Source: an uncultured Clostridia bacterium
GTDB taxonomy: Bacteria; Bacillota; Clostridia; Oscillospirales; Acutalibacteraceae
Direction of reading: 5' to 3'
Assembly (NCBI GenBank): GCA_937898625.1
Contig: CALEJF010000040.1
Span: forward strand, 11,278 to 75,277
Length of the DNA: 64,000 nt
The translations under genes and the position numbers were made by a program. Below the pieces are notes generated by a model. It saw only the letters and a list, made by a program, of their open reading frames with translations. It searched no databases and was not told the origin of the DNA. Of the stretch, positions 11,131 to 38,510 are shown one piece after another; position 1 is the first letter of the stretch; each line of letters starts with the position of its first letter.

Positions 11131-11427
11131 TTATTCTTCGTCAAATGAAAATAATTCTGATAATCTTTCTTCAAAAATCTTACCAATTTCATTGAACTCG
11201 TTATCATCTTCAATCGGCTCTAAATATGTTTCTCCATCCTCTTCGCAAACCTTGAGAATAATAAGCTCACCATCGTCATCAAGGATTTCTTCTGCCTCAT
11301 CATAAACAGGAAGAAGAGCTACATATTTTGCAGTATCTGTTTCGATTCTGTCAAGTTCTTCAAAAACATGTTCAACGCCATTTTCGTCAATTACTGACAC
11401 AAGGTCAGGATTAAACTCTTCGCTCAT
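11131..11427 (-). CDS. DUF1292 family small acidic protein
   Basis: 98 aa. The block VIDENGVEHVFEELDRIE...KYVALLP is typical of DUF1292 (YrzB-like). Confidence 0.75.
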   Translation of the reverse strand: MSEEFNPDLVSVIDENGVEHVFEELDRIETDTAKYVALLPVYDEAEEILDDDGELIILKVCEEDGETYLEPIEDDNEFNEIGKIFEERLSELFSFDEE

Positions 11428-12884: not shown

Positions 12885-13535
12885 ATGGAAATATTTTCAA
12901 ATTTTGTTGAAATACTTGGTGTAATTGCGTTTTCAATTTCCGGTGCTATGGTTGCCATAAGAAGAAAAACCGACCTTTTTGGTGTTATACTTCTTGCGAT
13001 TATTACTGCTCACGGTGGAGGACTTACAAGGGACATTGTTTTCAGTTTCTCCCCTCCTGCAATCTTTGGATTAAAGTACTATATTCTAATTTCAACCGTA
13101 GTTGCGGTTATTGTTTTTCTCTTTGCAAGAAAATTCAGCCACACATATTTGGAAAACGAATTAAGAATAGAACATATTAACGATGTTTTTGACGCATTGG
13201 GACTTGGCGTTTTCGCGGTAATAGGTGTTAAAGTGGGAATTGAACAGGGGCATTACGGACATGCATTGATTTGTATTACTTGCGGACTTTTAACAGGTAT
13301 TTGCGGTGGTATGCTTCGTGATGTTCTTACAAACTATACTCCATTTGTGTTGGTAAAACGAATTTATGCTGTTGCTGCATTAGCAGGCGCATCAGTATAT
13401 TATATACTATACATATACGGCTCAGCAATCCATATAAACGAAACTTTTGCAATCATCATTGGTGTTGCCGTTACATTTATATTGAGAATTCTTGCTATGA
13501 CATTTAAATGGAATATGCCGATAGCGATTAAGTAG
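12885..13535 (+). CDS. TRIC-type (UPF0126/YadS) trimeric cation channel family membrane protein
   Basis: 216 aa. Internal duplication with GGGLTRD and CGGMLRD glycine-rich motifs in TM2/TM5. Confidence 0.8.
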   Translation: MEIFSNFVEILGVIAFSISGAMVAIRRKTDLFGVILLAIITAHGGGLTRDIVFSFSPPAIFGLKYYILISTVVAVIVFLFARKFSHTYLENELRIEHINDVFDALGLGVFAVIGVKVGIEQGHYGHALICITCGLLTGICGGMLRDVLTNYTPFVLVKRIYAVAALAGASVYYILYIYGSAIHINETFAIIIGVAVTFILRILAMTFKWNMPIAIK

Positions 13536-13544
13536 GGTGATAAA

Positions 13545-14309
13545 ATGAAAGGAAATGCAACTATTATTGCAGTTGCAGGTAAAGGTGGTGTTGGCAAAAC
13601 ATCGCTTTCTGCAACAATTGTCAGATGTCTTGTTGAAAAATATCCTGACAAGAAAATTTTAGCAATTGACGCTGACCCTGCTGTTGGACTTTCAACTGCA
13701 TTGGGAATTGATGTAAAGCTTACAATTGATGACATAAGAAAAGAGATTATTGCATCCGTTGACGAGGGTGACACTAGAACTGCTATTGAACTTTTAGGTG
13801 AAGCGAAATACAGAATTTTTGATGCACTTGTTGAAACAGACGGATATTCATTTATTGCAGTTGGTCGTCCTGAAACTGCAGGATGCTATTGCAAAATAAA
13901 TTCATATTTAAAGGAAGTCATTTCAATTCTTTCAAACGAATTTGATTATGTTGTTATTGACGGTGAAGCGGGAATTGAACAGATAAATCGTCGTGTTATG
14001 GAAAAAGTTACTCACCTTCTTCTTATTACTGACCCAAGTAAAAAAGGCGGTCAGGTTATAAACACAATAAAATCTGTTGCAGACGAGCTTGTTATGTATG
14101 AAAAAATCGGTGTAATTATAAACCGTATGGCAGATGAAAGTCTTAAAGATTACATCAACACAAATGGTATTCCTGTATTGAGTTATATCGAGGATGATAA
14201 AAACTTATCGGTATTTGATATTAAAGGAGAAAATATTTTTAATCTTCCTGCGGAATCAAATGTTGTAATTGGGGTTAAAAAAGCACTTAATGAGATTGGG
14301 GTTGTTTAA
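13545..14309 (+). CDS. CooC/AcsF-type P-loop ATPase (MinD/ParA superfamily, Ni-insertion accessory type)
   Basis: Deviant Walker A AGKGGVGKTS, IDADP, and the CooC-specific metal-binding G-C-x-C motif (ETAGCYCKINS). It starts 9 nt after the TRIC gene. Confidence 0.8.
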   Translation: MKGNATIIAVAGKGGVGKTSLSATIVRCLVEKYPDKKILAIDADPAVGLSTALGIDVKLTIDDIRKEIIASVDEGDTRTAIELLGEAKYRIFDALVETDGYSFIAVGRPETAGCYCKINSYLKEVISILSNEFDYVVIDGEAGIEQINRRVMEKVTHLLLITDPSKKGGQVINTIKSVADELVMYEKIGVIINRMADESLKDYINTNGIPVLSYIEDDKNLSVFDIKGENIFNLPAESNVVIGVKKALNEIGVV

Positions 14310-15515
14310 ATGAAAGATTTAAAACATTTAATCTATTTTGAAAACTTGTTGCAAGAGGCAAATAACGACCTCGTAAAGCAAGCAACAGGCGAAGGTAAAC
14401 TTGCTATTGCCTACACTTGCTATCACATTCCGGAAGTTTTGCTTAATCTTGACAACTGTTTTTCAGTAAGACTTAGAGCACCACGAACAGGCTCAATGGA
14501 TATTGCTACATACTATATGAGTTCATTCCTTTGTGGTTATTCAAAAGCAATTCTTGAACGCGGTATTGAGGGTGGATATAATTTCCTTTCTGCTCTTATG
14601 GGGTCAGAGACCTGTTCAGAAATGAATCGTACATACGAGCATTTTGAATTGCTTAACCTTGTTCCAAACGACAAATTCTTTGTAAGCTTTGTTGATTCAC
14701 CATTCAAAATTGAAAAGCACACAGTAAAACACTACGCTAATCAGTTGAGAATTAAAGTTCTTGATAAATTACAAGAAGTTTACGGTGTTGATACAAGTGA
14801 CGAGGCATTAAGAAAAGCCGTAGAAGAGCATAACGAGATTTGTCGACTTATTACTGAAATCGGTGAATACAGAAAAGAAGAAAACCCAAGAATTACAGGT
14901 TATGAATTCCATGTTCTTTGTGTTGCAACATATTGCTGTCCAAAATATTTAATTCTTGATAAACTTCGTGAAACTGCAGAAGAATTAAAGACAAGAGAGC
15001 CTGATGCTAAAAAGAATTACCGAGCAAAAATTGTTGTTGTAGGCTCTGAAATGGACGACCCTGACTTTACAAAACTCATTGAAGACAGTGGTGCATTGGT
15101 TGTTGCTGACCGTTTCTGTTTCGGCTCAATGCCAGGTAGAGAAGAAATTGTTTTGAATGACGAAGACGATGTTCTTACACAGATTGCACTTCACTATATG
15201 AAGACAAGCCAATGCCCAAGATATATGAGTCACGAAAAGGTTCAGGAAAGACGTGACTATGTTAAAGAATTGGTTGATACATACCACGCAGATGGTGTTA
15301 TGTATGAACAGATTAAATTCTGCGAGTATTGGGGTTACGAGCGTGCCCTTGCTTCCTATGTTATGAGTGGTGATTATGGTGTACCAACTGCTGCAGTTGA
15401 CCGTCAGTATACCGCATCTGCATCAGGACAGCTTCGTACCCGTGTTCAGGCTTTTGTTGAAAGCCTCGAAATTAAGAAAATCCAAAAAGCAAAGGAGATG
15501 AGAGAAAATGGATAA
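14310..15515 (+). CDS. 2-hydroxyacyl-CoA dehydratase / benzoyl-CoA reductase family subunit (HgdB/BcrC-like, 401 aa)
   Basis: HGD-D family pattern: AYTCYHIPEV near the N-terminus, SETCSEMNR, GSEMDDPD...ADRFCFG, and KFCEYWGYE. The ATG directly abuts the CooC stop (TAAATG). Confidence 0.8.
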   Translation: MKDLKHLIYFENLLQEANNDLVKQATGEGKLAIAYTCYHIPEVLLNLDNCFSVRLRAPRTGSMDIATYYMSSFLCGYSKAILERGIEGGYNFLSALMGSETCSEMNRTYEHFELLNLVPNDKFFVSFVDSPFKIEKHTVKHYANQLRIKVLDKLQEVYGVDTSDEALRKAVEEHNEICRLITEIGEYRKEENPRITGYEFHVLCVATYCCPKYLILDKLRETAEELKTREPDAKKNYRAKIVVVGSEMDDPDFTKLIEDSGALVVADRFCFGSMPGREEIVLNDEDDVLTQIALHYMKTSQCPRYMSHEKVQERRDYVKELVDTYHADGVMYEQIKFCEYWGYERALASYVMSGDYGVPTAAVDRQYTASASGQLRTRVQAFVESLEIKKIQKAKEMRENG

Positions 15516-17037
15516 TTATGGTAAGCTTTACAAGGAGCATACTGCCATACTAAAACATCGCGAATGGCGTGGTTTTAAAGACACAATGTACGATTACTAC
15601 CGTTGGCTTGTTACATGGAAAGACATTATTAAAATGGCGCTTAAAGCTCCTGTTTCAACAGTAAAAGGTATTTGGAGATATCGTTGGATGGCATCCTATC
15701 TCTCTGCTCCGTCATTTATTGACCGTCATGTTGCAGGGCTTCGTGGTCCACAACTTCGTATGGCTCATTTGCATTATAATATGATTGTTAAGCATACGAC
15801 GGATATGATTAACTTATCATTAAAGGCTGACGAAAAAATCAATCCAAACAACAAACTCTCAAAGAGAATTGTTTTAATGGATGAAATTGTTCCAAATGAA
15901 ATCTTTACAGGTTTTCCAAATCTTATTCCCGTACCATTACAGACATTACCAATTTTCCTTGCTTCAATGGTTGACCAGCAGATTACACCACCTTATCTTG
16001 AGGTTGTTGAAAGTTTTGGTGTTCCTGCTGATGTTTGTCCCCTTCCAAGTGCTGAAGCAGGTGTTGCTATTGAAGACGATTACCCCAAAATGGGTTGTTG
16101 TATGATTGGTACAAACATGCCTTGCGACGGCTCAATTATGAACTCATCATTCCTTGACAGAAGATTGCAGTTGCCCACACATTGTTTTGGTATTCCGCTT
16201 CGTTATAACGGAGAAGATGTTCAGGAATATGGTGTTGACGAAATCAAAGCACTTATTGAATTCATAGAAAAGCAGACCGGTGAAAAGTTTGACTGGGATG
16301 CGTATTTCAGTAGAATGAAACAGTATAACGAACAGCTTGAATATGAATTGCAGAAATGGGACATTAACCGAACTGAATACCCACAGATGACAGGTGCTTG
16401 TTTCTGGCTTTACAGAATTTTCTATTTCAACCTTTCCGGTGGTTCAAATGAGCGTTTCTTAAAGGTCGACAAAAAAGTTAATAAAATTATGATGAAAGCC
16501 TATGAAAAGAAAACTCCTGTTTCAAAGGAAATGCGTCATAGAGCAGTTGTATGGTCCTGCCCTGCTAACTACTACACAAGCTTTGCAAACTGGCTTGAAA
16601 ACTGTTGGGGCGTAAATGTTGTTATGGATATGGAAACAATGATTTCATATCTTCACATTGACACAGAAGATAAAGAACAATCCCTTAAAGACCTTGCAAA
16701 AACATATCAGCGTTCAATTATGAGAAAGCACACCAAGGGTGGTTACAAAAATGTTGTTGACGAACTTTGGAGAATAGTTGACGAATACAATGCTGATACA
16801 GTTATTATGTATGACCAGATTTCTTGTAAAGGTATGGATGGTCTTACAGGTATATTTGATGACCAGGCAAGAGAGAGAAATGTTAACTTTATCTGGGTTA
16901 AACAAGACCTTATGGACCCACGCACAATTTCCCGTCGTGAAATGCGTGACCAGGTTAACAAATATATGCAGACAGTTTTACAAGAAGAGCCACTTGACCC
17001 TTCACTTGTAGATTTTGAAGATGATTTGGCTTGGTAA
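15508..17037 (+). CDS. 2-hydroxyacyl-CoA dehydratase / benzoyl-CoA reductase family subunit (HgdA/BcrB-like, 509 aa)
   Basis: Same family (DVCPLPSAEAG, NMPCDGS, WSCPANYY, QISCKGMDG). It overlaps the preceding gene by 8 nt and AAGGAG lies upstream. It is longer than the characterised alpha subunits I recall. Confidence 0.78.
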   Translation: MDNYGKLYKEHTAILKHREWRGFKDTMYDYYRWLVTWKDIIKMALKAPVSTVKGIWRYRWMASYLSAPSFIDRHVAGLRGPQLRMAHLHYNMIVKHTTDMINLSLKADEKINPNNKLSKRIVLMDEIVPNEIFTGFPNLIPVPLQTLPIFLASMVDQQITPPYLEVVESFGVPADVCPLPSAEAGVAIEDDYPKMGCCMIGTNMPCDGSIMNSSFLDRRLQLPTHCFGIPLRYNGEDVQEYGVDEIKALIEFIEKQTGEKFDWDAYFSRMKQYNEQLEYELQKWDINRTEYPQMTGACFWLYRIFYFNLSGGSNERFLKVDKKVNKIMMKAYEKKTPVSKEMRHRAVVWSCPANYYTSFANWLENCWGVNVVMDMETMISYLHIDTEDKEQSLKDLAKTYQRSIMRKHTKGGYKNVVDELWRIVDEYNADTVIMYDQISCKGMDGLTGIFDDQARERNVNFIWVKQDLMDPRTISRREMRDQVNKYMQTVLQEEPLDPSLVDFEDDLAW

Positions 17038-17051
17038 AGGAGAAGATAAAA

Positions 17052-17852
17052 ATGAAGTATTTTGGTGGATGCGATGTTGGCTCAACATATACAAAATGTG
17101 TTATTCTTGATGAAAACGGTAATATGGTTGCCAATGTGACTAATAGAAGTAAAATAAATCCTGTTCAGAGTGCTGAAATCGCACTCCAAGATGCAGTTGC
17201 ACAAGTAGATGGACTTAACTCTGCAAAGGAACTTACATATCTTATCGGTACAGGTTACGGACGAAACAAAGTTCCTTTTGCTGACGAAAACATTTCTGAA
17301 ATCAGTTGTCACGCTATGGGCGTACATGTTACAAACCCTGAAGTTAAAGCAATTATCGATATCGGCGGTCAGGATGTTAAAGGTATTTCAATTGACACAG
17401 ACGGTACTGTTAAAAACTTTGCTATGAACGACAAATGCGCTGCAGGTACAGGCCGTTTCTATGAGGCTATGGCTAATGCTTTTGAAATGACATTACCCGA
17501 ATTCTCAAAGCTTTCACTTAATGCAAAAAACACTATTCCGATTACTGCACAGTGTACGGTTTTTGCTGAATCAGAAGTTATTTCACTTGTTGGCGAAGGT
17601 AAACCAATGGACGAAATCGCAGCGGGTATTCAGTTAGCAGTTGCAAAGCGTTGTTTTGTTATGGCTAAAAAGGCCGGTGCAGTTGACAGCATCACGCTTA
17701 CAGGTGGTTGTGCAAAGAACGATGGTCTTAAAAAGGCTATTGAAAAAGTGCTTAAAATCAATGTTGTTGAGTTAAAGACTGACCCACAACTTATGGGTGC
17801 TTTAGGTGCTGCTGAATATGCACGCCAGAAAGGTCTTGCAAAGGTGAACTAA
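17052..17852 (+). CDS. HgdC/HadI-type ATP-dependent activase (BcrAD_BadFG ATPase with bridging [4Fe-4S] Cys)
   Basis: GCDVGSTYTKC, IDIGGQD, NDKCAAGTGRF and TGGCAKN motifs. Start at ATG after AGGAG; the tracked ORF begins at an upstream TTG. Confidence 0.88.
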   Translation: MKYFGGCDVGSTYTKCVILDENGNMVANVTNRSKINPVQSAEIALQDAVAQVDGLNSAKELTYLIGTGYGRNKVPFADENISEISCHAMGVHVTNPEVKAIIDIGGQDVKGISIDTDGTVKNFAMNDKCAAGTGRFYEAMANAFEMTLPEFSKLSLNAKNTIPITAQCTVFAESEVISLVGEGKPMDEIAAGIQLAVAKRCFVMAKKAGAVDSITLTGGCAKNDGLKKAIEKVLKINVVELKTDPQLMGALGAAEYARQKGLAKVN

Positions 17853-18008
17853 ATGAATGTTATTTTAATAATTCTTGGTGTTATTCTTGCACTTTTCCTT
17901 ATAACTTTTGCAATTTACTGGTTCAATCTTGATATGAAGCTTGTAAGAGTTGTTTATGACTGGTTGCAGAAACACTACGATAAAATGAAAAGAGATAAGA
18001 AATTATAA
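17853..18008 (+). CDS. 51-aa single-pass membrane micro-protein (not in ORF track)
   Basis: My own translation: MNVILIILGVILALFLITFAIYWFNLDMKLVRVVYDWLQKHYDKMKRDKKL. RBS GGTGA lies 5 nt upstream. The ATG immediately follows the activase stop, and the micro-ORF stop overlaps the next ATG (TAATG). Confidence 0.6.
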   Translation: MNVILIILGVILALFLITFAIYWFNLDMKLVRVVYDWLQKHYDKMKRDKKL

Positions 18009-18700
18009 TGAGATTATATAATAACCTTATCAATGAAATTAAAAGCAGCCTATGTAATTCAAAGTTACTTTCGGATGGGAAAAACCTTGATGTGAGTAAC
18101 AGAAACTCTGTTATTTTCTTGTCGGACTCAGCATTTGAACTTGGTGGTAGTCAAAAACCTTGTGTAAGCAGTCTTGCGGTTTCAAGTGATATGGAATTCT
18201 CAAATTCCGTAAAATTATTAGGTGATGACCTTAACGAAATTAAAAGTGACTCCCCTTTTGGCAAGTTTGTGCTGTTACAAATTGAAGATTTTGAAAATGA
18301 ACAAGACACCTTCAATAAAATCAAAGAACTAGAAGCTTTAAGATACCATCTGAATGTGGATGGATTTATGACAAGAGCATCGGCACTTAATATGCGTGAG
18401 CAGATTAGAATCAGCAAAAAAGCGATTAAATCCGGTGTTACTTTTGCTGATTACGGACAGACTCTTTTAAATGAATATCTTAGATTCGATTATGTTAAAA
18501 GTGCTGAAATATACTTTGTGACGAATTTTGATGACTTTGAAAAGTTAAATACAGTTGCAAAGAAAATAAGTCAGACAACATCGGCACTAAATCATATTTT
18601 TGATAATGTGATGTTTGACTGCTCTACTTGCAATCTTAAAGAAATCTGCGACGAAGTTGACGGACTAAAAGAATTGCATTTGAAGACTATGAAAAAATGA
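18008..18700 (+). CDS. Stand-alone acetyl-CoA synthase (AcsB/CdhC) middle-domain-like protein, 230 aa
   Basis: Several blocks align with the remembered Moorella AcsB region ~320-520: AFELGG; VKLLGDDLNEI vs IEVIGPDIDQI; RISKKAIKSGVTFADYGQTLL vs RVSKDAVAKGFRFKNYGEILV; and C-terminal FDCSTCNLKEIC vs YSCVLCQSFAPNHVC. Confidence 0.5.
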   Translation: MRLYNNLINEIKSSLCNSKLLSDGKNLDVSNRNSVIFLSDSAFELGGSQKPCVSSLAVSSDMEFSNSVKLLGDDLNEIKSDSPFGKFVLLQIEDFENEQDTFNKIKELEALRYHLNVDGFMTRASALNMREQIRISKKAIKSGVTFADYGQTLLNEYLRFDYVKSAEIYFVTNFDDFEKLNTVAKKISQTTSALNHIFDNVMFDCSTCNLKEICDEVDGLKELHLKTMKK

Positions 18701-18730
18701 ATATAAAAGATTTATTAAGGAGTGTTAAAT

Positions 18731-20371
18731 GTGAAAAAAGTAGTTTCCTTATTACTTTCAGTTGTGCTTGTATTCTGTACAATAATTCCTGCTTTTGCAG
18801 GGGTGGATGCAAACGAAAGTAAAAGCCAAATTCCTGTTATCCGTATTTCGGGTGATGGTGAACCACTTTATGACGAAGATGGCAACAAAATATTCCACTA
18901 TAAGGATGTTGTGAAACTCGTTTCAGGTGAAAATGGCGACAATAGTGAAATGTACAAATCAATGGCTAAAACTCTTATTCCTGCTATTGCCAAGGGTCTT
19001 GCAACAGACAATTGGGATGACCTTTATGTTGGTCTTGAAACAGAAATAAGCAAAATTTTTGCTAACTCTTTACTTGACGAAAACGGTAATGTGACTAATG
19101 GTTCCGGTTTATCCCAAAGTCGAAAAGAGCAGATGGAAAACAAGAGAAACAACAGCCAAAAGGGTGACAAGGGCTACTTTGCATGGAACGACTATTGGTT
19201 CCACTATGACTGGCGACTTGACCCTATGGAAACTGCTGATGTATTTAACTCATTTGTTAAAGATATCAAGAGAACAACCGGTTGTGAAAAGGTTGGTATT
19301 GCCGCAACATGCCTCGGCACTAACATTGTTATGGCGTATGTTGCAAAATATGGTGTAGATGATATTCAGGGTATAGCAATGGATGGCAGCGTTGTTGGTG
19401 GTGCAGAAATTTTAAGTGAAGTTATCTGTGCAAAGTTCGATATTGCTCCTCCTGCACTAATGAGAATTCTTCGTGATGTTGATGGACTTGGTATGTTTAA
19501 CATAGAAGATTTTATTCTTGAAACAATAGATATGCTTGTTAAGACAGGAGTTCTTGAAGGTGTAATCAGCACAACAGAAAACCTCTTATATGACAAACTT
19601 GTTGAAGGCGTAACTTCTGCCCTCGCTCTTTCAACATTCTATACCTGGCCAAACTATTGGGCTTGTGTAAGTCCGGAAGACTATGAATCAGCCAAATATT
19701 ATGTGTTTGGTGAAGAAGGCAGCGAAAAGAGAATAAAATACGCCGGTCTTATTCAAAAACTTGATAATTACGATAAGGAAGTTCGCCAAAGAGTTCCTGA
19801 ACTTATCCAGAAGATTAAGGATGGTGGCGCAAACTTTGGTGCAATTTCAAAATACGGATTCCAGATGATACCTATTTGTGCAAGTGCTGATTTAGTTTCA
19901 GACCAATTCGCTTCTGTAAAGCGTTCATCTTTCGGCGCAACAACACCAACTGTTTATGAAACTCTTTCGGACGAATATATTGCTCAGAGAACAGCTGAAG
20001 GTAAGGGTCACTATATCTCCCCAGACAAGCTCATTGATGCTTCTACATGCATATGTCCGGACACTACCTGGTTCATCAAAGGTTCTACCCATTCCAAATG
20101 GACATCTTACGAACTCAAAATACTTTATGAGGTTGCATCTGCAGACAGACAGTTGACTATTAAAGATTTCCCATATACTCAGTTTATGGTTTATGACGCT
20201 GAAACTGATACACTTGAACCGATGACTGAAGAAAACTGTCATACAGAATACTGGGACGCTGACCCGGATATTTATAAACCAGCAACGACTGTTGACCAAA
20301 TCGAAGTTACTATCAACTCAGTTTTACATTGGTTAAAACATTTTGTTGTATTTGTTGGTAATAAAATCTAA
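18731..20371 (+). CDS. Secreted LCAT/lipase-like alpha/beta-hydrolase fold protein
   Basis: GTG start 8 nt after AAGGAG gives MKKVVSLLLSVVLVFCTIIPAFA-G (Sec signal peptide). It has the FHYDWRLDP motif of the LCAT family. The nucleophile elbow reads AATCLGT instead of GHSLG. Confidence 0.6.
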   Translation: MKKVVSLLLSVVLVFCTIIPAFAGVDANESKSQIPVIRISGDGEPLYDEDGNKIFHYKDVVKLVSGENGDNSEMYKSMAKTLIPAIAKGLATDNWDDLYVGLETEISKIFANSLLDENGNVTNGSGLSQSRKEQMENKRNNSQKGDKGYFAWNDYWFHYDWRLDPMETADVFNSFVKDIKRTTGCEKVGIAATCLGTNIVMAYVAKYGVDDIQGIAMDGSVVGGAEILSEVICAKFDIAPPALMRILRDVDGLGMFNIEDFILETIDMLVKTGVLEGVISTTENLLYDKLVEGVTSALALSTFYTWPNYWACVSPEDYESAKYYVFGEEGSEKRIKYAGLIQKLDNYDKEVRQRVPELIQKIKDGGANFGAISKYGFQMIPICASADLVSDQFASVKRSSFGATTPTVYETLSDEYIAQRTAEGKGHYISPDKLIDASTCICPDTTWFIKGSTHSKWTSYELKILYEVASADRQLTIKDFPYTQFMVYDAETDTLEPMTEENCHTEYWDADPDIYKPATTVDQIEVTINSVLHWLKHFVVFVGNKI

Positions 20372-22565: not shown

Positions 22566-22636
22566 ATCTACAATACATTAAATTGGGAAATTTTGTATTT
22601 TATGTATTAACTATTTGTGTTTGGAGGCAAAAAACT

Positions 22637-24019
22637 ATGAAAGTACAGTTTACAGAAACCGTATTGAGAGATGCCAACCAGTCACTTATTGCTACAAGAA
22701 TGCCGTTCGCTGATTTCGAACCAGCTCTTGAAAAGCTTAATAAGGCCGGTTACTATTCTCTTGAGTGCTGGGGCGGTGCTACATTTGACTCATGTCTTCG
22801 TTATCTTAATGAAGACCCATGGGAAAGACTTCGCAACATCAAAGCTAAATGTCCTGATACAAAGCTTCAGATGCTTCTTCGTGGTCAAAACCTTTTAGGT
22901 TATAAACACTATCCGGATGATGTTGTAAGAATGTTTGTTAAGAAAAGTATTGAAAACGGTATTGATGTTATCAGAATTTTCGATGCACTCAACGATGTTC
23001 GTAACATTCAGGTGGCAGTTGACGAAACAATAAAAAACGGTGCAATTGCATCAGGTGCTATTTCTTATACAACAAGCCCTGTTCACACACTCCAGAATTA
23101 TGTTGCTCTTTGTAAAGAAATGAAAGAAATGGGTTGTTCTACAATCTGTATCAAAGATATGGCAGGTGTTATGACTCCCGTTGAGGCAAAAGACCTTGTT
23201 GGTGCTATTAAGGACGCAATGCCTGAAATGCCTGTTATTCTTCATACTCACTGCACAACAGGTATGGCTTATATGACAATCCTTAAAGCAGTTGAGGCAG
23301 GTTGCGATATTATTGACACTGCAACATCTTGTTTCTCAGGTGGTACTGCTCAACCTGCAACAGAAACACTTTATGATGCTCTTACAGGTCTTGGCTATGA
23401 AACAGGTCTTGACAGAGACACATTAAAAGCAGTAAATGACCACTTTAAGCCACTTCGTGACCAGTATCTTTCATCAGGTCTTTTAAAACCAAAAGCACTT
23501 GTAACTGATACAGATGCATTGACATATAAAGTTCCCGGCGGTATGCTTTCAAATATGATGGCAAACCTTGAGGATATGAATGCTCTTGACAGAATGGAAG
23601 AAGCTCTTTTAGAAATTCCTCAGGTTCGTAAGGATATGGGCTATCCCCCACTTGTTACTCCCCTCAGCCAGATGGTTGGTAACCAGGCTGTTACAAATGT
23701 ACTTGTTGGTGAAAGATATAAGAATATTTCAAAAGAAATCAAGGCTTATATCAAGGGTGAATATGGTAAGGCACCGGGCGAAATTGACGCAGACCTTCAG
23801 AAGAAAGTTCTTGGTGATGATGAGCCTGTAACATGTCGTTTTGCTGATACTCTTGAACCAATGTTTGAACAGACAAAGGCTGAACTTGGCGATATGGCAA
23901 AATGTGATGAAGATGTTCTTTCATATATCGCATTCCCTGCTCAGGCTGAAAAATTCCTTGAAGCAAGAGCAGAAAAAGAAAAGAACACATTTAAGTATTC
24001 AATCAAGAGAATTGACTAA
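22637..24019 (+). CDS. oadA: Oxaloacetate decarboxylase alpha subunit, carboxyltransferase part (no biotinyl domain)
   Basis: MKVQFTETVLRDANQSL (HMGL-like TIM barrel), HTHCTTGMA, and a PYC_OADA C-terminal region. It ends without an AMKM motif. ATG after GGAGG. Confidence 0.88.
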   Translation: MKVQFTETVLRDANQSLIATRMPFADFEPALEKLNKAGYYSLECWGGATFDSCLRYLNEDPWERLRNIKAKCPDTKLQMLLRGQNLLGYKHYPDDVVRMFVKKSIENGIDVIRIFDALNDVRNIQVAVDETIKNGAIASGAISYTTSPVHTLQNYVALCKEMKEMGCSTICIKDMAGVMTPVEAKDLVGAIKDAMPEMPVILHTHCTTGMAYMTILKAVEAGCDIIDTATSCFSGGTAQPATETLYDALTGLGYETGLDRDTLKAVNDHFKPLRDQYLSSGLLKPKALVTDTDALTYKVPGGMLSNMMANLEDMNALDRMEEALLEIPQVRKDMGYPPLVTPLSQMVGNQAVTNVLVGERYKNISKEIKAYIKGEYGKAPGEIDADLQKKVLGDDEPVTCRFADTLEPMFEQTKAELGDMAKCDEDVLSYIAFPAQAEKFLEARAEKEKNTFKYSIKRID

Positions 24020-24031
24020 GGAGGACATAAA

Positions 24032-24631
24032 ATGGCATTATCAGAAATTTTAAGTATTTCTGCTACCGGTTTTATTGTCGTTTTAATTATTCTTGTTCTT
24101 CTTGCAGTTATTATTGTTGGCATTTCAAAAGTTATCCGTACTTTTGAAGGTGGTGCGAAAAAAACAGATGATGCAGAAAAAGTAGAAGCTCCTGCTCCTA
24201 AAAAGGAAACAAAACCTGCTCCTGCACCTGTTTCTGCTCCTGTTACAACAGTTGCACCTGCACAGCAAGTTGATGGTCTTATGCTTTATAAAACAGACTA
24301 CAAAACTGCAGCATCAATTATGGCTATTGTAAGTCACGAAAGTGGTATTCCACTTAACAAACTTGCTTTCAGCTCAATCAAACTTGATGACTCTCTTGAA
24401 CTTTATAAAACAGACTATAAAACAGCGGCATCAATTATGGCTATTGTAAGCCATCAAACAGAAATTCCTCTCGAAAGACTTGTTTTTAGGTCAATCAGAC
24501 TTTGCGACACACCTGAACTTTATAAAACAGATGAAGAAACTGCTGCTAAAGTAATGGCAATCACAAGCAAAGAATCAGGAATTCCACTTGACAGACTTGT
24601 ATTTAAATCAATTAAACTTATTGAGAAATAA
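24032..24631 (+). CDS. oadG: OadG-like membrane anchor subunit with Ala/Pro linker and three tandem 39-aa modules
   Basis: N-terminal TM segment [18 protein letters not shown] typical of OadG/GcdD, then a PAPAP linker, then 3 repeats of LYKTD(Y/E)(K/E)TAA..MAI.S...(G/E)IPL..L.F.SI.L. Confidence 0.7.
24284..24628 (+). repeat. Three tandem in-frame 117/117/111-nt repeats inside the OadG-like gene
   Basis: Units at 24284-24400, 24401-24517 and 24518-24628. The first ~50 nt of units 1 and 2 differ at only about 3 positions. Confidence 0.9.
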
Positions 24632-24645
24632 AGGAGAATATCAAA

Positions 24646-25077
24646 ATGAAATATGTAGTTACATTAAACGGAAATGATTACGAAGTTGAAGTAAATGAAC
24701 TTAACGAAGCAGTTGTTACTGCTGTTGTTCCATCTGCAGCTCCTGTTGTAGTTGCTGCTCCTGTTGCACCTGTTGTAGCACCTGTTGCTGCTCCTGCCCC
24801 CACTCCTGTTGTTGAGGCAGCTCCAGCTCCTGCAGCTGCACCTGCTCCTGTTGCAATTGGTGATGGTACAAAAGTTACTGCTCCAATGCCAGGTACTGTT
24901 CTTTCAGTTAACATTTCAAACGGTCAGGCAGTAAATGAAGGCGATGTTCTTTTCATTCTTGAAGCTATGAAGATGGAAAATGAAATCGTTGCTCCTTGTG
25001 CAGGTACTGTTAAGCAAGTTATTGCAACAAAGGGTGCATCAGTTGCTACTGACGAAGTTCTTGCAGTTATCGGCTAA
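24646..25077 (+). CDS. Biotin carboxyl carrier protein of the decarboxylase (biotinyl domain with Ala/Pro linker)
   Basis: EAMKMENEI biotinylation motif and a long AP-rich linker. Confidence 0.88.
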
Positions 25078-25090
25078 TTGAGGTGCAATT

Positions 25091-26275
25091 ATGCAGATAG
25101 TAAACGCTCTTGTAGAGCTTTTTAATCAATCTAATTTTGTTAACTTGCCTTGGCAGAACTGGATTATGATTGGTGTTTCATTTGTTCTTCTCTATCTTGC
25201 GATAGTAAAGAAATTTGAGCCATTACTCTTAATCCCTATTGCTTTTGGTATGCTTCTTGTTAACATTTATCCCGAAATTATGGCAGACCCCACTAATATG
25301 TCATTTGTCGGCGATAACAATCCATATTTAGACCCAAATGCACATTGGTATGATACAGGCGTTTTACGACTTATCTACGCAGGTGTTAAGTCTAGTATCT
25401 TCCCCTGCCTTATCTTTATGGGCGTTGGTGCTATGACTGACTTCGGACCACTCCTTGCAAATCCATCAAGCCTTCTTTTAGGTGCTGCTGCACAATTAGG
25501 TATTTATGTAGCATTTACAATTGCAATGCTTTCAGGTGAATTCACACCCGAAGAAGCTGCTTCTATTGCTATTATAGGTGGTGCTGATGGTCCTACAGCA
25601 ATTTTCCTTACAGGAAAACTTGCTCCTCACCTTTTGGGTTCAATCGCAGTTGCCGCATATTCATATATGGCTTTGATTCCACTTATTCAGCCACCAATTA
25701 TGAAATTGCTTACAACTAAAAAGGAAAGAGAAATCAAGATGAATCAGCTTCGTACAGTAAGTAAAGCTGAAAAGATTATCTTCCCAATTGTTGTTACTGT
25801 TATCTGTGTTCTTATTCTTCCTTCAGTTGCTCCTCTTCTTGGTTTCCTTATGCTTGGTAACCTTTTCAAAGAAAGTGGACTTACTGACAGACTTTCAGAC
25901 ACAGCACAGAATTCCCTTTGTAATATTGTTACAATCTTGCTTGGCACAACTGTTGGTGCAACAGCAGAAGGTTCAGCATTCCTTAATAAGAAAACACTTC
26001 TTGTTATTGGTATCGGATTGCTCGCTTTTGCATTCTCCACTGCAGGTGGTGTAATCTTTGCAAAGATTATGAATGTTGTAACAAAGGGCAAGGTTAACCC
26101 ACTTATCGGTTCAGCAGGTGTATCTGCTGTTCCTATGGCTGCTCGTGTTTCACAGGTTGAGGGTAGAAAATACAATCCTTCAAATTTCCTTTTAATGCAC
26201 GCAATGGGTCCAAATGTTGCAGGTGTTATCGGTTCAGCAGTTGCTGCCGGTTTCTTACTTTCACAATTCGGTTAA
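25091..26275 (+). CDS. oadB: Na+-translocating decarboxylase beta subunit
   Basis: 394-aa polytopic protein of the OadB/GcdB/MmdB type (GGADGPT, GSAGVSAVPMAARV). Confidence 0.9.
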   Translation: MQIVNALVELFNQSNFVNLPWQNWIMIGVSFVLLYLAIVKKFEPLLLIPIAFGMLLVNIYPEIMADPTNMSFVGDNNPYLDPNAHWYDTGVLRLIYAGVKSSIFPCLIFMGVGAMTDFGPLLANPSSLLLGAAAQLGIYVAFTIAMLSGEFTPEEAASIAIIGGADGPTAIFLTGKLAPHLLGSIAVAAYSYMALIPLIQPPIMKLLTTKKEREIKMNQLRTVSKAEKIIFPIVVTVICVLILPSVAPLLGFLMLGNLFKESGLTDRLSDTAQNSLCNIVTILLGTTVGATAEGSAFLNKKTLLVIGIGLLAFAFSTAGGVIFAKIMNVVTKGKVNPLIGSAGVSAVPMAARVSQVEGRKYNPSNFLLMHAMGPNVAGVIGSAVAAGFLLSQFG

Positions 26276-34136: not shown

Positions 34137-36764
34137 TTAAAAAAGTTTACTTGCGCTGATAATTTCCTCGTTTGTGACTTTGCCAGTTGGAATTGCGTTT
34201 ACTGATTTGATTGCTTCAGCAGTTAAATCACTATATGGTGAATTGAGTTTGCTGTTTACATACTCTGCAAGACTTTCACTCTTAAAGATTGCTTTTTGCT
34301 TTCTTTCATTACCATACTTGTCGAAGAATATTCCATTTTCGTAATATGCTGGAGTTTCTATTACTTTTTCAAAACTACCATTGTACTGTGGAATGTTGAG
34401 TTTTGAAATTGCATAATAGTTTGCATCTGTTTCCTTTGCAGTTGTATATATCTCTTTATTATTTTCTTCCGCATATTTTTTTAGTACAAATGCAGTTTCA
34501 GTTGAAACTTTACCGTTAATTACGATTGTATCAAGGTTGAGTATTTCATCGAAATCAGTTGTTTGCGATTGCTCGTTAAGAACACCGAAACGACCACCTT
34601 TACAGAGGATTCCGTTATTTACAGGTAATGCTCGGGTTACAGTTGAGCCGATATAACGATAATCAATATCACAAAGGTTAGAACAGTTTGTGCAAATGCT
34701 CTTAACTGAGTTTTCTTTAACGGGAACGCTCTTTGTAAATGATGTTTTTTCTCGGAGTGCACCAGTCGGGCAAAGTGCAACGCATTGACCACAAGCAATA
34801 CATTCGGTTTCTTTGAGATGTTTTGAGAGTTCAGGCTCAACAAGAGTATTGAAACCACGGTTAATAAGTCCGATTGCAGACTTGCCCATAACTTCTTCAC
34901 AAACTCTTACACAAAGACCGCAGAGAATACATTTATCCGTATTTCTCGCAATTAAATCGTTTGCGTTTTCTTGGTTTCTGTTGTGTTTCTCCCCTGCAAA
35001 TCTTGATGGTTTAACATCATAATCATTTGCATAAGAAATAAGTTTACATTCAAAGTAATCGTGACAACCACATTCAAGACAACGGTTTGCTTCTTTTTTT
35101 GCAATTTCTTCGCTGAAACCGAAATTAACTTCCTTAAAGTTTGTTTTTCTGTCAGCAGGACTCATATGTGGCATTTTGGCTCTTGGTGATTTTTCAAATT
35201 TTGAATAGTCAATTGCCTTGCTATCCTGTTCAACAAAATATGGCTTTTTGTAGCCTACTGTTTCACCATTCAAGTATCTATCAATTACAACAGATGCTTT
35301 TTGTGCCTCACCAATTGCAGCAATTGCAATATCAGCACCCTTATTTGTAGCATCACCAACTGCAAATACACCATCAACTGATGTTGTAAATCTGCTTTCA
35401 TCTGCTGAAATAGTGTTTTTGCGTGTTGCTTCAAGAGTTTCAAATCCATTAAGATTTGGATACTGGCCGATTGCCATAATTACACTGTCAAGGGCGATTT
35501 CTTCGGTTTCACCCTCAATGGCAACAGGTCTTCTTCTGCCACTTTCATCAGGCTCACCAAGTTCCATTTTTTGCAAGATAACTCCGTTGAGTTTTCCATT
35601 TTCCCCTGTAAATTCAATAGGATTTGTAAGGTATTTATAAATAACGCCCTCTTCTTCTGACTCAAGAATTTCCTGTGGGTCAGCAGGCATTTCGTCCTTT
35701 GTACGACGATAAATAACATACACATTTTCTGCACCAAGGCGAACTGCAACACGGCAAGCATCCATAGCGGTATTACCACCACCGCAAACTGCAACATTTT
35801 TGCCGATTTCGGGTTTGTTTCCAAGGGCAACCTCGCGAAGAAAGTCGATACCACCCCATACACCGTCCAAATCTTCACCTTGAACTCGCATTTTACTGCT
35901 ATTCCAAGCACCGATAGCAACAAGTGTAGCATCGTGGTCTTCTTTGATTTCTTCAAATAAAATATCCTTGCCAATTTTTACATTATTCTTGAGTATTACG
36001 CCCATATCTTCAATGAGTTTAATCTCTTTATCTAAAACTGCTTTTGGAAGACGGTATTCAGGGATACCGTAACGAAGCATACCGCCCATTTTTGGCATCT
36101 GCTCAAAAATTGTTACACTATGGCCTTGTTTACGAAGGAAATACGCCGCTGTAAGACCAGCAGGACCACCACCGATAATTGCAACCTTTTTATTTGTATC
36201 AGGTTCAATTGCAGGGACATAAGTATCACCCAACAAGTCCATATCCCCTACGAAGCCTTTAAGGAATGCAATTGAAATTGGTTCGTCAACATACTGTCTG
36301 CGACACTGCTTTTCACAAGGATGAGGACAAATTCTACCGATTGATGCAGGTAAAGGCAACTTTTCTTTAATAAGTTTAACTGCTTCTCTATATTCACCAT
36401 TTGCAATAAGACCAACATAACCCTGACAATCTGTTCCTGCAGGGCAAGCCTTGCTACAAGGTGCAACGCAATCACCGGTATGGTCGGAGAGCAAAAGTTC
36501 AAGTGCAACTTTACGAGAAGCCTTGATTCTTTCTGTCTGTGTATGAACTACCATACCATCAGCCACTTTTGTTGAACAAGCTCGAAGAAGTTTTGGGTTA
36601 CCCTCTACCTCAACTGTACAAAGTCCGCAAGCACCGTAAAGTTCTACCCTGCCATCATAACAGAGATTCGGAATCTTAATTCCATTCTGTGTAGCAACAT
36701 TGAGTATTGTTGAGCCTTCTTCTGCAATTATCTTTTTACCATCAATAGTTAATGTAATACTCAA
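34137..36764 (-). CDS. Multidomain iron-sulfur flavoprotein: N-terminal [2Fe-2S]/NuoG-like Fe-S, GltD/NfnB-like NAD(P)H-FAD module, 2x[4Fe-4S], and a degenerate molybdopterin-oxidoreductase-type remnant
   Basis: 875 aa. Motifs: CYDGRVELYGACGLC; HTGDCVAPC; VAIIGGGPAGL and VCGGGNTAMD (GltD dinucleotide folds); CILCGLCVRVC and CIACGQCVALCP; then CTNCSNLCD...LCKGGRFG. No H-cluster motifs. TTG start after GGAGGTG. Confidence 0.75.
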   Translation of the reverse strand: MSITLTIDGKKIIAEEGSTILNVATQNGIKIPNLCYDGRVELYGACGLCTVEVEGNPKLLRACSTKVADGMVVHTQTERIKASRKVALELLLSDHTGDCVAPCSKACPAGTDCQGYVGLIANGEYREAVKLIKEKLPLPASIGRICPHPCEKQCRRQYVDEPISIAFLKGFVGDMDLLGDTYVPAIEPDTNKKVAIIGGGPAGLTAAYFLRKQGHSVTIFEQMPKMGGMLRYGIPEYRLPKAVLDKEIKLIEDMGVILKNNVKIGKDILFEEIKEDHDATLVAIGAWNSSKMRVQGEDLDGVWGGIDFLREVALGNKPEIGKNVAVCGGGNTAMDACRVAVRLGAENVYVIYRRTKDEMPADPQEILESEEEGVIYKYLTNPIEFTGENGKLNGVILQKMELGEPDESGRRRPVAIEGETEEIALDSVIMAIGQYPNLNGFETLEATRKNTISADESRFTTSVDGVFAVGDATNKGADIAIAAIGEAQKASVVIDRYLNGETVGYKKPYFVEQDSKAIDYSKFEKSPRAKMPHMSPADRKTNFKEVNFGFSEEIAKKEANRCLECGCHDYFECKLISYANDYDVKPSRFAGEKHNRNQENANDLIARNTDKCILCGLCVRVCEEVMGKSAIGLINRGFNTLVEPELSKHLKETECIACGQCVALCPTGALREKTSFTKSVPVKENSVKSICTNCSNLCDIDYRYIGSTVTRALPVNNGILCKGGRFGVLNEQSQTTDFDEILNLDTIVINGKVSTETAFVLKKYAEENNKEIYTTAKETDANYYAISKLNIPQYNGSFEKVIETPAYYENGIFFDKYGNERKQKAIFKSESLAEYVNSKLNSPYSDLTAEAIKSVNAIPTGKVTNEEIISASKLF

Positions 36765-38510
36765 TTATTTCACCTCCACAGCATTGAAACGGCAAACTGA
36801 TACGCAGTTTCCACATTTAATACATTTTTCCACATCAATAATATGGGGATTTTTAACTGTTCCGCTGATAGCACCAACAGGACATTTTTTAGCACACAAT
36901 GTACAACCTTTACAAGCCTCTGCGTTGATTTGGTAACGAAGAAGATTTGTACACTCGTGAGCAGTACATTTTTTCTCAACAATATGCTCAAGATATTCGT
37001 TTTTAAAGTATTTAAGTGTTGTAAGGACAGGGTTTGGTGCAGTCTGGCCAAGTCCACAAAGTGCACCATCTTTAATTGCAAGACAAAGTTCTTCCAAAAG
37101 TTCAATGTCTTCTTCCTTGCCGTTACCCTCTGTAATTCTTGTGAGAATTTCAAGCATTCTCTTTGTGCCAAGACGACAATGAACACATTTACCACATGAT
37201 TCTTTTGCAGTAAAATCAAGGAAGAAACGAGCCATTTCTACCATGCAAGTGCTATCGTCCATAACAACCATACCACCTGAGCCCATAATAGCCCCCGTAG
37301 CTGAAAGTGCTTTATAATCAATTACAGTGTCAAGCAATTCGGCAGGAATACAACCACCCGATGGTCCACCCATTTGAACGGCTTTGAAGTTTTTATCGTT
37401 TTTAATACCGCCACCAATGTCAAAAATAACATCACGGAGAGTTTTACCCATTGGGATTTCAACAAGTCCACCACGCTTGATTTTACCTGTAAGTGCAAAA
37501 ACCTTTGTACCCTTGCTGTTTTCAGTGCCCATTGATGAGAAAGCATTTCCACCATTGAGAATAATCCAACTGACATTTGCAAATGTTTCAACATTATTGA
37601 TATTTGATGGTTTATGCCAATATCCTGACTGTGCAGGGAACGGCGGTTTAAGTCTTGGCATACCGCGAGAGCCTTCAAGTGACTCAATAAGTGCAGTTTC
37701 TTCACCGCAAACAAATGCACCTGCACCTGCTTTTATACGAAAATCGCAAGAAAAGTCTGTACCCATTATGTTTTGACCTATATACCCTTTGGCTTTTGCT
37801 TGGTCAATAGCATTTTGAAGTCTTTTAATTGCAAGTGGGTACTCGGCACGAACATAAACGATTGCTTCACTTGCACCGATGGCATAAGCACCTATGAGCA
37901 TACCCTCGATAAGATTGTGGGGGTCGCCCTCAATAACGGCTCTGTCCATAAATGCTCCCGGGTCACCCTCGTCCGCATTACAGATAAGATATTTCTTTTC
38001 ACCTTGTGACTGACGGGCAGCATTCCACTTAAACCAAGTGGGGAAACCTGCACCGCCACGACCAGCAAGACCTGAAATCTTGATTTCTTCAATTACATCT
38101 TCAGGTGACATTGTAGTTAATACTTTGTTGAGCGCCTTATAGCCGTCATCCTTGGTATAATCTTCAATAAGTTCAGGGTTGATAACACCACAATGGCGAA
38201 GTGCAATTCTTGTTTGCTTATCTAAAAATTGTTTATCATCGTCGGAGATTTCATATTCTTTAGCCGATGCTAAATCGTTGTTATTAACTGCAACTGCAAT
38301 TTTTTCTGCAATTTCACCAGTTACTTTTACAAATCTGTGGAGTCCATCGTGTGCGTAAACATCAACAATAGGCTCAAGGTAACACATACCGATACAACCT
38401 GTAACTGTAAGTTGATTTTCACTTAAATCAAGGGTTGAATTTAATACATCATAGGCTTTTTGTGCACCTGCAGCGATACCGCAACTGCCCTGACCAACTG
38501 CAATTTTCAT
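36765..38510 (-). CDS. NuoF/HydB-like NADH-binding FMN Fe-S flavoprotein subunit
   Basis: GLAGRGGAGFPT (FMN/NADH site), SCGKCVHCR (N3-type cluster), and C-terminal 2x[4Fe-4S] CKGCTLCAKKCP / CIKCGNCVSVC. Confidence 0.88.
   Translation of the reverse strand: MKIAVGQGSCGIAAGAQKAYDVLNSTLDLSENQLTVTGCIGMCYLEPIVDVYAHDGLHRFVKVTGEIAEKIAVAVNNNDLASAKEYEISDDDKQFLDKQTRIALRHCGVINPELIEDYTKDDGYKALNKVLTTMSPEDVIEEIKISGLAGRGGAGFPTWFKWNAARQSQGEKKYLICNADEGDPGAFMDRAVIEGDPHNLIEGMLIGAYAIGASEAIVYVRAEYPLAIKRLQNAIDQAKAKGYIGQNIMGTDFSCDFRIKAGAGAFVCGEETALIESLEGSRGMPRLKPPFPAQSGYWHKPSNINNVETFANVSWIILNGGNAFSSMGTENSKGTKVFALTGKIKRGGLVEIPMGKTLRDVIFDIGGGIKNDKNFKAVQMGGPSGGCIPAELLDTVIDYKALSATGAIMGSGGMVVMDDSTCMVEMARFFLDFTAKESCGKCVHCRLGTKRMLEILTRITEGNGKEEDIELLEELCLAIKDGALCGLGQTAPNPVLTTLKYFKNEYLEHIVEKKCTAHECTNLLRYQINAEACKGCTLCAKKCPVGAISGTVKNPHIIDVEKCIKCGNCVSVCRFNAVEVK

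Follow-up and report, generated by a model that had tools for sequence, protein, structure and literature searches.

The 64,000-nucleotide stretch of DNA analysed here (the window; positions 11,278–75,277 of the forward strand of contig CALEJF010000040.1, assembly GCA_937898625.1, from an uncultured Clostridia bacterium of the family Acutalibacteraceae) encodes a 230-residue protein that is a homologue of the A2 (middle) domain of acetyl-CoA synthase (ACS; AcsB/CdhC) and is not itself an acetyl-CoA synthase. The gene for this A2-like protein lies on the plus strand at 18008–18700 and is the last of six tightly packed genes on that strand, the others encoding, in order, a CooC-like ATPase, two HGD-D subunits of 401 and 509 residues, an activase and a 51-residue peptide. 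The initial annotation had proposed an ACS middle-domain-like protein at this position, and this is confirmed, the open reading frame being exactly 230 codons long without its stop.

The assignment to A2 follows from profile, hhalign and structure comparisons, all of which point to ACS. The Pfam family PF03598 (CdhC) matches residues 40–173 with a score of 29.7 bits (E = 7e-7) against a gathering cut-off of 24 bits. With phmmer, residues 38–181 align with residues 335–474 of Moorella thermoacetica ACS among the PDB sequences (E of about 1e-3), and a profile built from the family of the A2-like protein reaches residues 329–498 of the same enzyme with E values of 1.7e-13 to 2.7e-13 and also matches the ACS of Clostridium autoethanogenum, Carboxydothermus and Methanosarcina. 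Comparison by hhalign with an alignment of real ACS fragments gave a probability of 98.7% (E = 2.9e-16) over query residues 31–200, which delimit the A2-like domain proper (18098–18607, plus strand). The HMMER and HH comparison with PF03598 and ACS, which had been proposed as a check of the annotation, thus gave a significant result at each step, with the Pfam score above its cut-off, profile E values of about 1e-13 and the hhalign probability given above. An AlphaFold2 model computed from a 69-sequence alignment has a mean predicted local distance difference test (pLDDT) score of 93.4 and a predicted template modelling score of 0.89. When this model was compared with the PDB using Foldseek, all 21 matches at E ≤ 0.001 were ACS/CdhC chains (E = 2e-10 to 6e-7, with a template modelling score of about 0.6 normalized by the query), and the next match had an E value above 0.1. 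The fold is accordingly common to the A2-like protein and the A2 domain of ACS structures such as 1OAO, 1MJG, 3GIT, 7ZKJ and 9C0S, at a sequence identity of only 16–19% in the Foldseek matches. The NCBIfam models for ACS give 27–33 bits for the protein against cut-offs of about 800.

The signature motifs of ACS A2, VE(L/M/F)GG, IGPD(I/L), EG(F/Y)M and R(V/I)SKxAxxKGxxFxxxG, recur in the A2-like domain as E44-L-G-G, G72-x-D74, G119-x-M121-x-R123 and R134-x-S-K-x-A-x3-G143-x6-G150. The initial annotation had paired four blocks of the protein with Moorella ACS. Two of these pairings, VKLLGDDLNEI with IEVIGPDIDQI and RISKKAIKSGVTFADYGQTLL with RVSKDAVAKGFRFKNYGEILV, are exactly those that HMMER produces. 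The pairing of AFELGG with AFEL was mistaken: the query AFELGG pairs with Moorella YVEMGG, and the Moorella string PAFELV pairs with KPCVSSLAV of the query. In the remaining block the string YSCVLCQSFAPNHVC is genuine ACS sequence (it occurs in homologue P0400), but its pairing with FDCSTCNLKEIC appears in no significant alignment.

Unlike ACS, the A2-like protein has neither an A1 nor an A3 domain, and hence lacks the Cys595-Gly-Cys597 Ni ligands, and its 230 residues compare with 470–730 in ACS. A phmmer search with the ACS A3 sequence found no A3 (A-cluster) domain, including its Cys-Gly-Cys Ni site, in the window or in 121 related loci. That the domain stands outside a Wood–Ljungdahl context, as had been supposed, is borne out by a Pfam sweep of the larger open reading frames of the window and by the gene tables of five related loci (L037–L040 and L121), none of which contains a carbon monoxide dehydrogenase (CODH), a corrinoid iron–sulfur protein (CoFeSP) or a methyltransferase; in this respect too the gene is set apart from those of ACS. 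When the Moorella A2 fragment served as the query, all homologues retrieved were short proteins or fragments and none was a full-length ACS; they nevertheless included real ACS sequences with their cysteine motif and a stand-alone subfamily with four cysteines (see below). The sole find of a tblastn search of plasmids was a genuine ACS region in Acetoanaerobium.

The A2-like protein contains cysteines at positions 205, 208 and 214, with 16 conserved residues following Cys214 to the C-terminus. Conservation across the family delimits a candidate metal site, D204-C205-x2-C208-x5-C214-D-E-V-(E/D)-G-x-(R/K)-E-L-H224 (18617–18679, plus strand), and the C-terminal consensus of the family reads D-C-x2-C-x-L-K-x-I-C-D-E-V-E-G-M-R-E-L-H-F. 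The three cysteines are invariant in 69 diverse members and 98% conserved in a set of 120 sequences, in which Asp204 is conserved at 88% and His224 at 75%. In the predicted model, short helices surround the motif with a lower pLDDT of 70–85. As in ACS, a long linker helix precedes a C-x2-C that is collinear with the first cysteines of the A-cluster, where the corresponding ACS residues ligate the [4Fe-4S] part of the cluster; the spacing between successive cysteines, x2/x5, differs from the x2/x8/x9 of ACS. Default HMMER and HH alignments to ACS end at about residue 200, some five residues short of Cys205, and on the ACS side 8–12 residues short of Cys506. A relaxed hhalign run places Cys205, Cys208 and Cys214 on the equivalents of ACS Cys506, Cys509 and Cys518 with low column confidence, and in global mode Cys214 shifts to the fourth A-cluster cysteine. 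A profile of the last 68 residues alone found no ACS among the PDB sequences, only coiled-coil designs and a chance ferritin match, so the cysteine motif by itself cannot be called an A-cluster homologue. Its position, collinear with where the A-cluster domain begins, is compatible with descent from that domain, its homology not being statistically established. The initial statement that the protein stops at the first A-cluster cysteines therefore holds for collinearity and for the missing A3 domain, and goes beyond what is statistically established in equating CxxCx5C with the ACS ligands.

The protein belongs to a sizeable stand-alone family. An exhaustive HMMER scan of 1.84 billion cluster representatives at 50% identity yielded 433 clusters with E ≤ 1e-3, of which 251 reached E ≤ 1e-10. 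The best 150 were all short proteins, mostly of 225–265 residues, and none was of ACS length. The 69 diverse members, which are 24–55% identical to the query, share the invariant residues Gly72, Cys205, Cys208 and Cys214; Glu44, Leu45, Gly46, Gly119, Met121, Glu131, Arg134, Gly150, Thr172 and Asp204 are at least 90% conserved, and the family is otherwise only 37% identical per column. The window protein shows the features of the family in its size, its four invariant residues, its C-terminal DCxxCx5C(D/E) and the CooC-type gene with a CxC motif alongside. A sister subfamily (P0408–P0414; 256–279 residues) is more ACS-like, matching CdhC at E = 1e-20, and has a fourth cysteine that extends the motif to C-x3-C-x2-C-x5-C, as would be expected of a four-ligand metal site. 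No NCBIfam model is dedicated to the stand-alone family; 50 of the 69 members match ACS models, far below their cut-offs, and members carry database names such as 'hypothetical protein', 'carbon monoxide dehydrogenase' and 'CO dehydrogenase/acetyl-CoA synthase beta subunit'. Gut metagenomes of humans and animals contain these proteins in abundance; a single cluster at 90% identity (P0139) comprises 477 member sequences, two of which each occur on more than 100 contigs. We found no description of the stand-alone family or of the gene combination in the literature covered, which did not extend to subscription papers. Leads to papers on isoprene reductase, SAO/double-cubane systems, Geobacter, Calderihabitans and lateral gene transfer in Methanosphaera were rejected as unrelated.

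Among close relatives (Candidatus Fimenecus), the median ratio of nonsynonymous to synonymous substitution rates (dN/dS) is 0.087 for the A2-like gene and 0.024–0.038 for its five partner genes. The gene is thus under clear purifying selection, yet two to four times more relaxed than its partners, and across loci the identity of the A2-like protein drops to about 32% while that of the activase stays above 80%.

The six genes form a translationally coupled operon, with gaps of 0 to −8 nucleotides between them. The initial annotation had named the CooC-like neighbour of the A2-like gene and missed the rest, namely the reductase subunits, the activase and the micropeptide. The first gene (13545–14309, plus strand) encodes a CooC/AcsF-type SIMIBI ATPase of 254 residues with a deviant Walker A motif, GKGGVGKT, and matches to the Pfam families CbiA and AAA_31. 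Its best PDB match is CooC1 of C. hydrogenoformans (3kje; E = 7e-14), and its Cys114-Tyr-Cys116 aligns with Cys112-Tyr-Cys114 of CooC1, the interfacial metal site of that protein, so that the Ni/Zn-binding CxC is kept. This CxC is 100% conserved in 11 non-redundant homologues and is also kept in the distant locus L121.

The second gene (14310–15515, plus strand) encodes a 401-residue BzdN-like HGD-D subunit (PF06050, E = 5e-94) that is predicted to carry a double-cubane [8Fe-9S] cluster. Its best PDB match is BzdN (8s02_B; E = 6e-26), and its cysteines 37, 75, 102, 270, 302 and 338 align one-to-one with Cys36, Cys73, Cys100, Cys263, Cys293 and Cys327 of BzdN, the ligands of the [8Fe-9S] cluster in that protein (PMC11971306). 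None of the six varies among 18 non-redundant homologues (100% conservation); the NCBIfam double_cubane model NF040772 scores 135.7 bits, below its cut-off of 350. The third gene (15508–17037, plus strand), which overlaps the second by 8 nucleotides, encodes the 509-residue HGD-D subunit (PF06050, E = 2.7e-46, residues 128–487), presumably the catalytic partner. This subunit has no sequence match in the PDB and gave no pairwise alignment to BzdO or HadB; Cys177 and Cys206 are invariant in it and Cys440 is 90% conserved, which makes these three the candidates for the three-cysteine ligation of a catalytic [4Fe-4S] cluster. Its N-terminal segment of about 125 residues (window 15508–15880) is a strongly conserved, Trp/Arg-rich extension ahead of the HGD-D domain, with the pattern REWRGF...YYRWL..W...WRYRW..., and has no match in the PDB or Pfam.

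The fourth gene (17031–17852, plus strand) is the single gene for an HgdC-type activase, an ATP-dependent electron-transfer ATPase (PF01869, E = 2.4e-57; TIGR00241, acyl-CoA dehydratase activase, 213.8 bits against a cut-off of 125), with identities of 81–99% across all loci. It is followed by a 51-residue micropeptide (17853–18008, plus strand) with a single transmembrane helix and a conserved juxtamembrane (W/F)NLD(M/Q)KL motif; its stop codon overlaps the ATG of the A2-like gene (TAATG). The micropeptide matches no Pfam family; homologous peptides of 52–64 residues are found at the same position in diverse loci, and 99 small open reading frames of the loci bear its motif. Its presence suggests membrane tethering in a family of enzymes that are otherwise soluble. 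A PADLOC scan for anti-phage defence matched no system and gave only weak P-loop noise, and a scan for promoters and terminators gave counts equal to those expected from shuffled sequence.

Judged from its sequence, the core of the operon is a member of the family of benzoyl-CoA reductases, 2-hydroxyacyl-CoA dehydratases and double-cubane cluster proteins (BCR/HAD/DCCP), with PF06050 present twice, PF01869, TIGR00241 and the [8Fe-9S] ligand set of BzdN. Like those systems it combines two HGD-D subunits, one with all six cysteine ligands, with an HgdC-type ATPase. It departs from them in that there is a single activase gene, that the catalytic subunit has the N-terminal extension and lacks a PDB sequence match, that the operon adds the micropeptide, the CooC-like ATPase and the A2-like protein, and that there are no aromatic-degradation genes nearby.

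The association of these genes was assessed in 59 loci with at least 4.6 kb of upstream and 1 kb of downstream sequence, many of which are from Ca. Fimenecus and are not phylogenetically independent. The CooC-like gene, with its CxC motif, is present in 58 of the 59, both HGD-D genes and the activase in 53, and the micropeptide is detectable in 46. The tie between the A2-like protein and the CooC-like ATPase, which had been surmised from the window, is supported by these counts. The six-gene module recurs with unrelated flanks in Ruminococcaceae UBA3323 and another metagenome-assembled genome (MAG), with 59% identity of the A2-like protein; it is also found in a Eubacterium sp. MAG (33% identity), in two further MAGs and in dozens of gut metagenome contigs, and persists to an A2-like identity of about 32%.

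Three kinds of variant locus are informative. In the P0139 lineage, which is very abundant in the human gut (L041–L051 and L064), only an adjacent cooC-like/A2-like pair is found, 5 nucleotides apart and surrounded by housekeeping genes for PEPCK, TsaD, a MetE-like protein and PolA (e.g. L043, 7231–8696), with no HGD-D or activase gene within 8 kb. In L121, which carries a member of the four-cysteine subfamily (P0410), the order is HGD-D, HGD-D, activase, A2-like, CooC-like, with sigma-54 activator genes upstream; there is no micropeptide, and the catalytic subunit has 429 residues and is missing the first ~42 residues of the N-terminal extension. The same five protein types thus stay together in a changed order. 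In L097, L103, L106, L113 and others, a second HGD-D/HGD-D/micropeptide set lies downstream on the minus strand and converges on the A2-like gene; its products are 36–54% identical to those of the window, and its micropeptide follows the larger HGD-D gene. Since this set adjoins the module in several loci, a single activase, CooC-like ATPase and A2-like protein may be shared by two enzymes. Conservation relative to the window is mosaic in L039, L054 and L065, where the larger HGD-D subunit and the activase are 86–95% identical, the CooC-like ATPase 75–78% and the A2-like protein 39–45%, which suggests that the two end genes have either evolved rapidly or been replaced.

We tentatively favour, with rather less than even confidence, the interpretation that the A2-like protein is a three-cysteine metal-binding partner or client of the CooC-like ATPase and that the pair serves the reductase. 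The protein would be a non-catalytic derivative of ACS A2 that has kept a short C-x2-C-x5-C where the A-cluster domain begins, and would act as a dedicated partner that docks to the CooC/AcsF-type ATPase encoded alongside it or accepts metal from it. The ATPase dimer may bind a metal (Ni, or an Fe–S unit) at its interfacial CxC and, at the expense of ATP, load or hand this metal to the three-cysteine site; the two would jointly mature, repair or complete a metal centre for the putatively membrane-tethered BzdN/BzdO-like double-cubane enzyme, which is presumably reduced by the HgdC-type activase. The client or acceptor role is proposed by analogy with AcsF, since AcsF acts on ACS: in a passage of PMC10134865 that cites Gregg et al. 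(2016), this CooC homologue is described as inserting Ni into ACS in an ATP-dependent manner. As in the AcsF/CooC systems that accompany ACS and CODH, a CxC-bearing CooC-family ATPase is encoded here beside an ACS-derived protein; unlike there, the Ni-binding part of the A-cluster is missing from the client and the pair sits in a BCR/HAD-type operon. A non-catalytic, accessory role fits because the A2-like protein outpaces its partners in evolution and because the bare pair with the ATPase exists; the faster evolution suits an accessory protein or adaptor better than a catalytic core. A functional analogy may be drawn with NifH and NifEN, in that a SIMIBI ATPase handling the cofactor of an enzyme family is paired with a protein descended from that family, beside a P-cluster-like double-cubane enzyme. 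The A2-like protein has no homology to NifEN and the likeness is purely one of mechanism.

Several points weigh against this interpretation, its main weakness being that the recipient site of the metal is hypothetical. We infer both the binding of metal and the complex with the ATPase, and the roles of scaffold, adaptor or metallochaperone target suggested by the initial annotation are likewise conjectural. The C-terminal motif on its own shows no significant similarity to ACS, and default alignments stop short of it; only three ligands are invariant, as Asp204 and His224 vary. Identity correlations do not single out the cooC-like/A2-like pair as co-evolving, all pairs of operon genes being about equal (rho = 0.73–0.95), and the preponderance of Ca. 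Fimenecus among the loci reduces the weight of their counts. In addition, BzdNO has reportedly been produced in E. coli without such a factor and analysed with its [8Fe-9S] cluster (PMC11971306), so the double cubane as such needs no CooC-type helper.

The other readings are in part compatible with the one we favour, as the A2-like protein could bind CoA as well as hold a metal. It is unlikely that the protein is a CoA- or acyl-CoA-binding subunit that keeps the ancestral task of A2, holding the nucleotide part of CoA, and presents or gates the CoA thioester for the HGD-D enzyme, with the three cysteines binding a cofactor of its own whose maturation would fall to the CooC-like ATPase. In ACS, A2 is the main site of acetyl-CoA binding, by adenine stacking on a Trp and by a Lys/Arg patch (bioRxiv 10.1101/2024.08.05.606187), and the family keeps a basic R-x-S-K (Arg134 and Lys137), Arg123 and an Arg or Lys at position 130; BCR/HAD enzymes act on CoA thioesters (PMC11971306). 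On an inferred offset mapping, however, the stacking Trp corresponds to position 132, where the window protein has Gln and just 24% of the family have Trp, and the His contact of ACS corresponds to Leu111. BzdO and HadB bind CoA themselves (PMC11971306), no CoA-transferase, ligase or acyl-CoA dehydrogenase is conserved beside the module in the gene tables of distant loci, and the bare pair with the ATPase would be left unexplained. The bare pair also bears on a purely structural role, which we consider quite improbable: Cys205, Cys208 and Cys214 with His224 or Asp204 would form a Cys3His/Asp zinc knuckle that steadies a C-terminal helical hairpin, or bind no metal at all, the protein being architectural or membrane-recruiting and the ATPase having a different client. 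The C-x2-C-x5-C-x9-H spacing and the 75% conservation of His224 are compatible with a small zinc site, the short, less confidently predicted helices around the motif are in keeping with it, and the gene is translationally coupled to that of the membrane micropeptide. Such a subunit would not be expected to be paired almost obligately with a CooC-type ATPase, even in the bare pair, and the fourth ligand is not conserved.

An electron-transfer function has the slightest claim of the roles considered here. The three cysteines would ligate a [4Fe-4S] cluster, a partner or dimerization supplying the fourth ligand, and the protein would relay electrons, for instance from a physiological donor to the activase or the double cubane, and the CooC-like dimer might be a second, NifH-like ATP-driven reductase. 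The collinear ACS cysteines do ligate the [4Fe-4S] of the A-cluster, CooC resembles NifH in its SIMIBI fold and interfacial cysteines, and the gene tables read show no conserved ferredoxin gene in the Firmicute module. Yet an HgdC-type activase is already there, CooC-family proteins are known as metal insertases and not as reductases, three cysteines within ten residues make an unusual [4Fe-4S] motif, and neither Pfam nor the C-terminal profile against the PDB shows any similarity to ferredoxins. That the gene is a decaying, functionless remnant of an ACS gene is suggested by its truncation relative to ACS, with A1 and A3 absent. The uniformly short length of the best 150 clusters, the invariant motifs, the dN/dS of 0.087, the translational coupling and the synteny kept to about 32% identity leave this reading virtually no probability, and we rejected a pseudogene as refuted by the conservation and dN/dS data.

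A bolder extension of the metal-partner interpretation would be that the ATPase and the A2-like protein assemble or carry a centre with Ni, or with some other mix of metals, for a radical enzyme of the BCR/HAD family in non-acetogenic gut Clostridia, the complex being sited at the membrane through the conserved micropeptide. This centre would be a new Ni–Fe–S cofactor, or a 'mini-ACS' that couples the ATP-driven double-cubane reductase to metal-based acyl/CoA chemistry; we regard it as a long shot.

To our knowledge, CooC/AcsF ATPases and ACS domains have no known occurrence outside the biology of CODH and ACS, and BCR/HAD and double-cubane enzymes are thought to need only an HgdC-type activase. 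The combination of a CooC-type ATPase, an ACS-derived protein and a micropeptide occurs in no described BCR/HAD/DCCP member; the module links nickel-chaperone and ACS parts to radical Fe–S enzymology in gut anaerobes. Such a widespread, strongly conserved operon suggests a new maturation route or metal centre in ATP-driven radical enzymes, or the reuse of an ancient carbon-fixation domain as an adaptor. With six genes and three cysteines it offers a defined set for biochemical testing. The label 'CO dehydrogenase/acetyl-CoA synthase beta subunit' is misleading for these proteins and can give rise to false calls of Wood–Ljungdahl or CO metabolism in gut genomes.

The module is closely flanked on both sides. 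A membrane protein of the PF03458 family ('glycine transporter'/UPF0126; 12885–13535, plus strand) ends 9 nucleotides upstream of it, and a gene for a 549-residue protein that is hydrophobic in its N-terminal segment and weakly matches alpha/beta-hydrolases (18722–20371, plus strand) begins 21 nucleotides downstream; comparable genes are found at neither position in the gene tables of L037, L039, L040 and L121. Elsewhere the window is ordinary Clostridia chromosome, with genes for Lon, SerC/SerA-like proteins, SpoIIR, an oxaloacetate-decarboxylase sodium pump, MutS/MutL and MiaB. The cluster for the sodium pump, of the oxaloacetate-decarboxylase type (22583–26275, plus strand), includes OAD_beta (Pfam), a biotin carrier with an Ala/Pro-rich linker and a likely carboxyltransferase, the last judged from its translation by eye; it also contains a 199-residue protein (24032–24631) with three tandem copies of a motif of about 45 residues. 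On the minus strand at 34137–38510, two adjacent genes encode large flavin/Fe–S oxidoreductases. The product of one, a NuoF-like 51K subunit, has additional ferredoxin domains, and that of the other, 875 residues long, joins a 2Fe-2S domain to a GltD-like pyridine-nucleotide oxidoreductase and to an Nqo3-like ferredoxin domain; the pair resembles an electron-bifurcating hydrogenase or an NADH–ferredoxin module.

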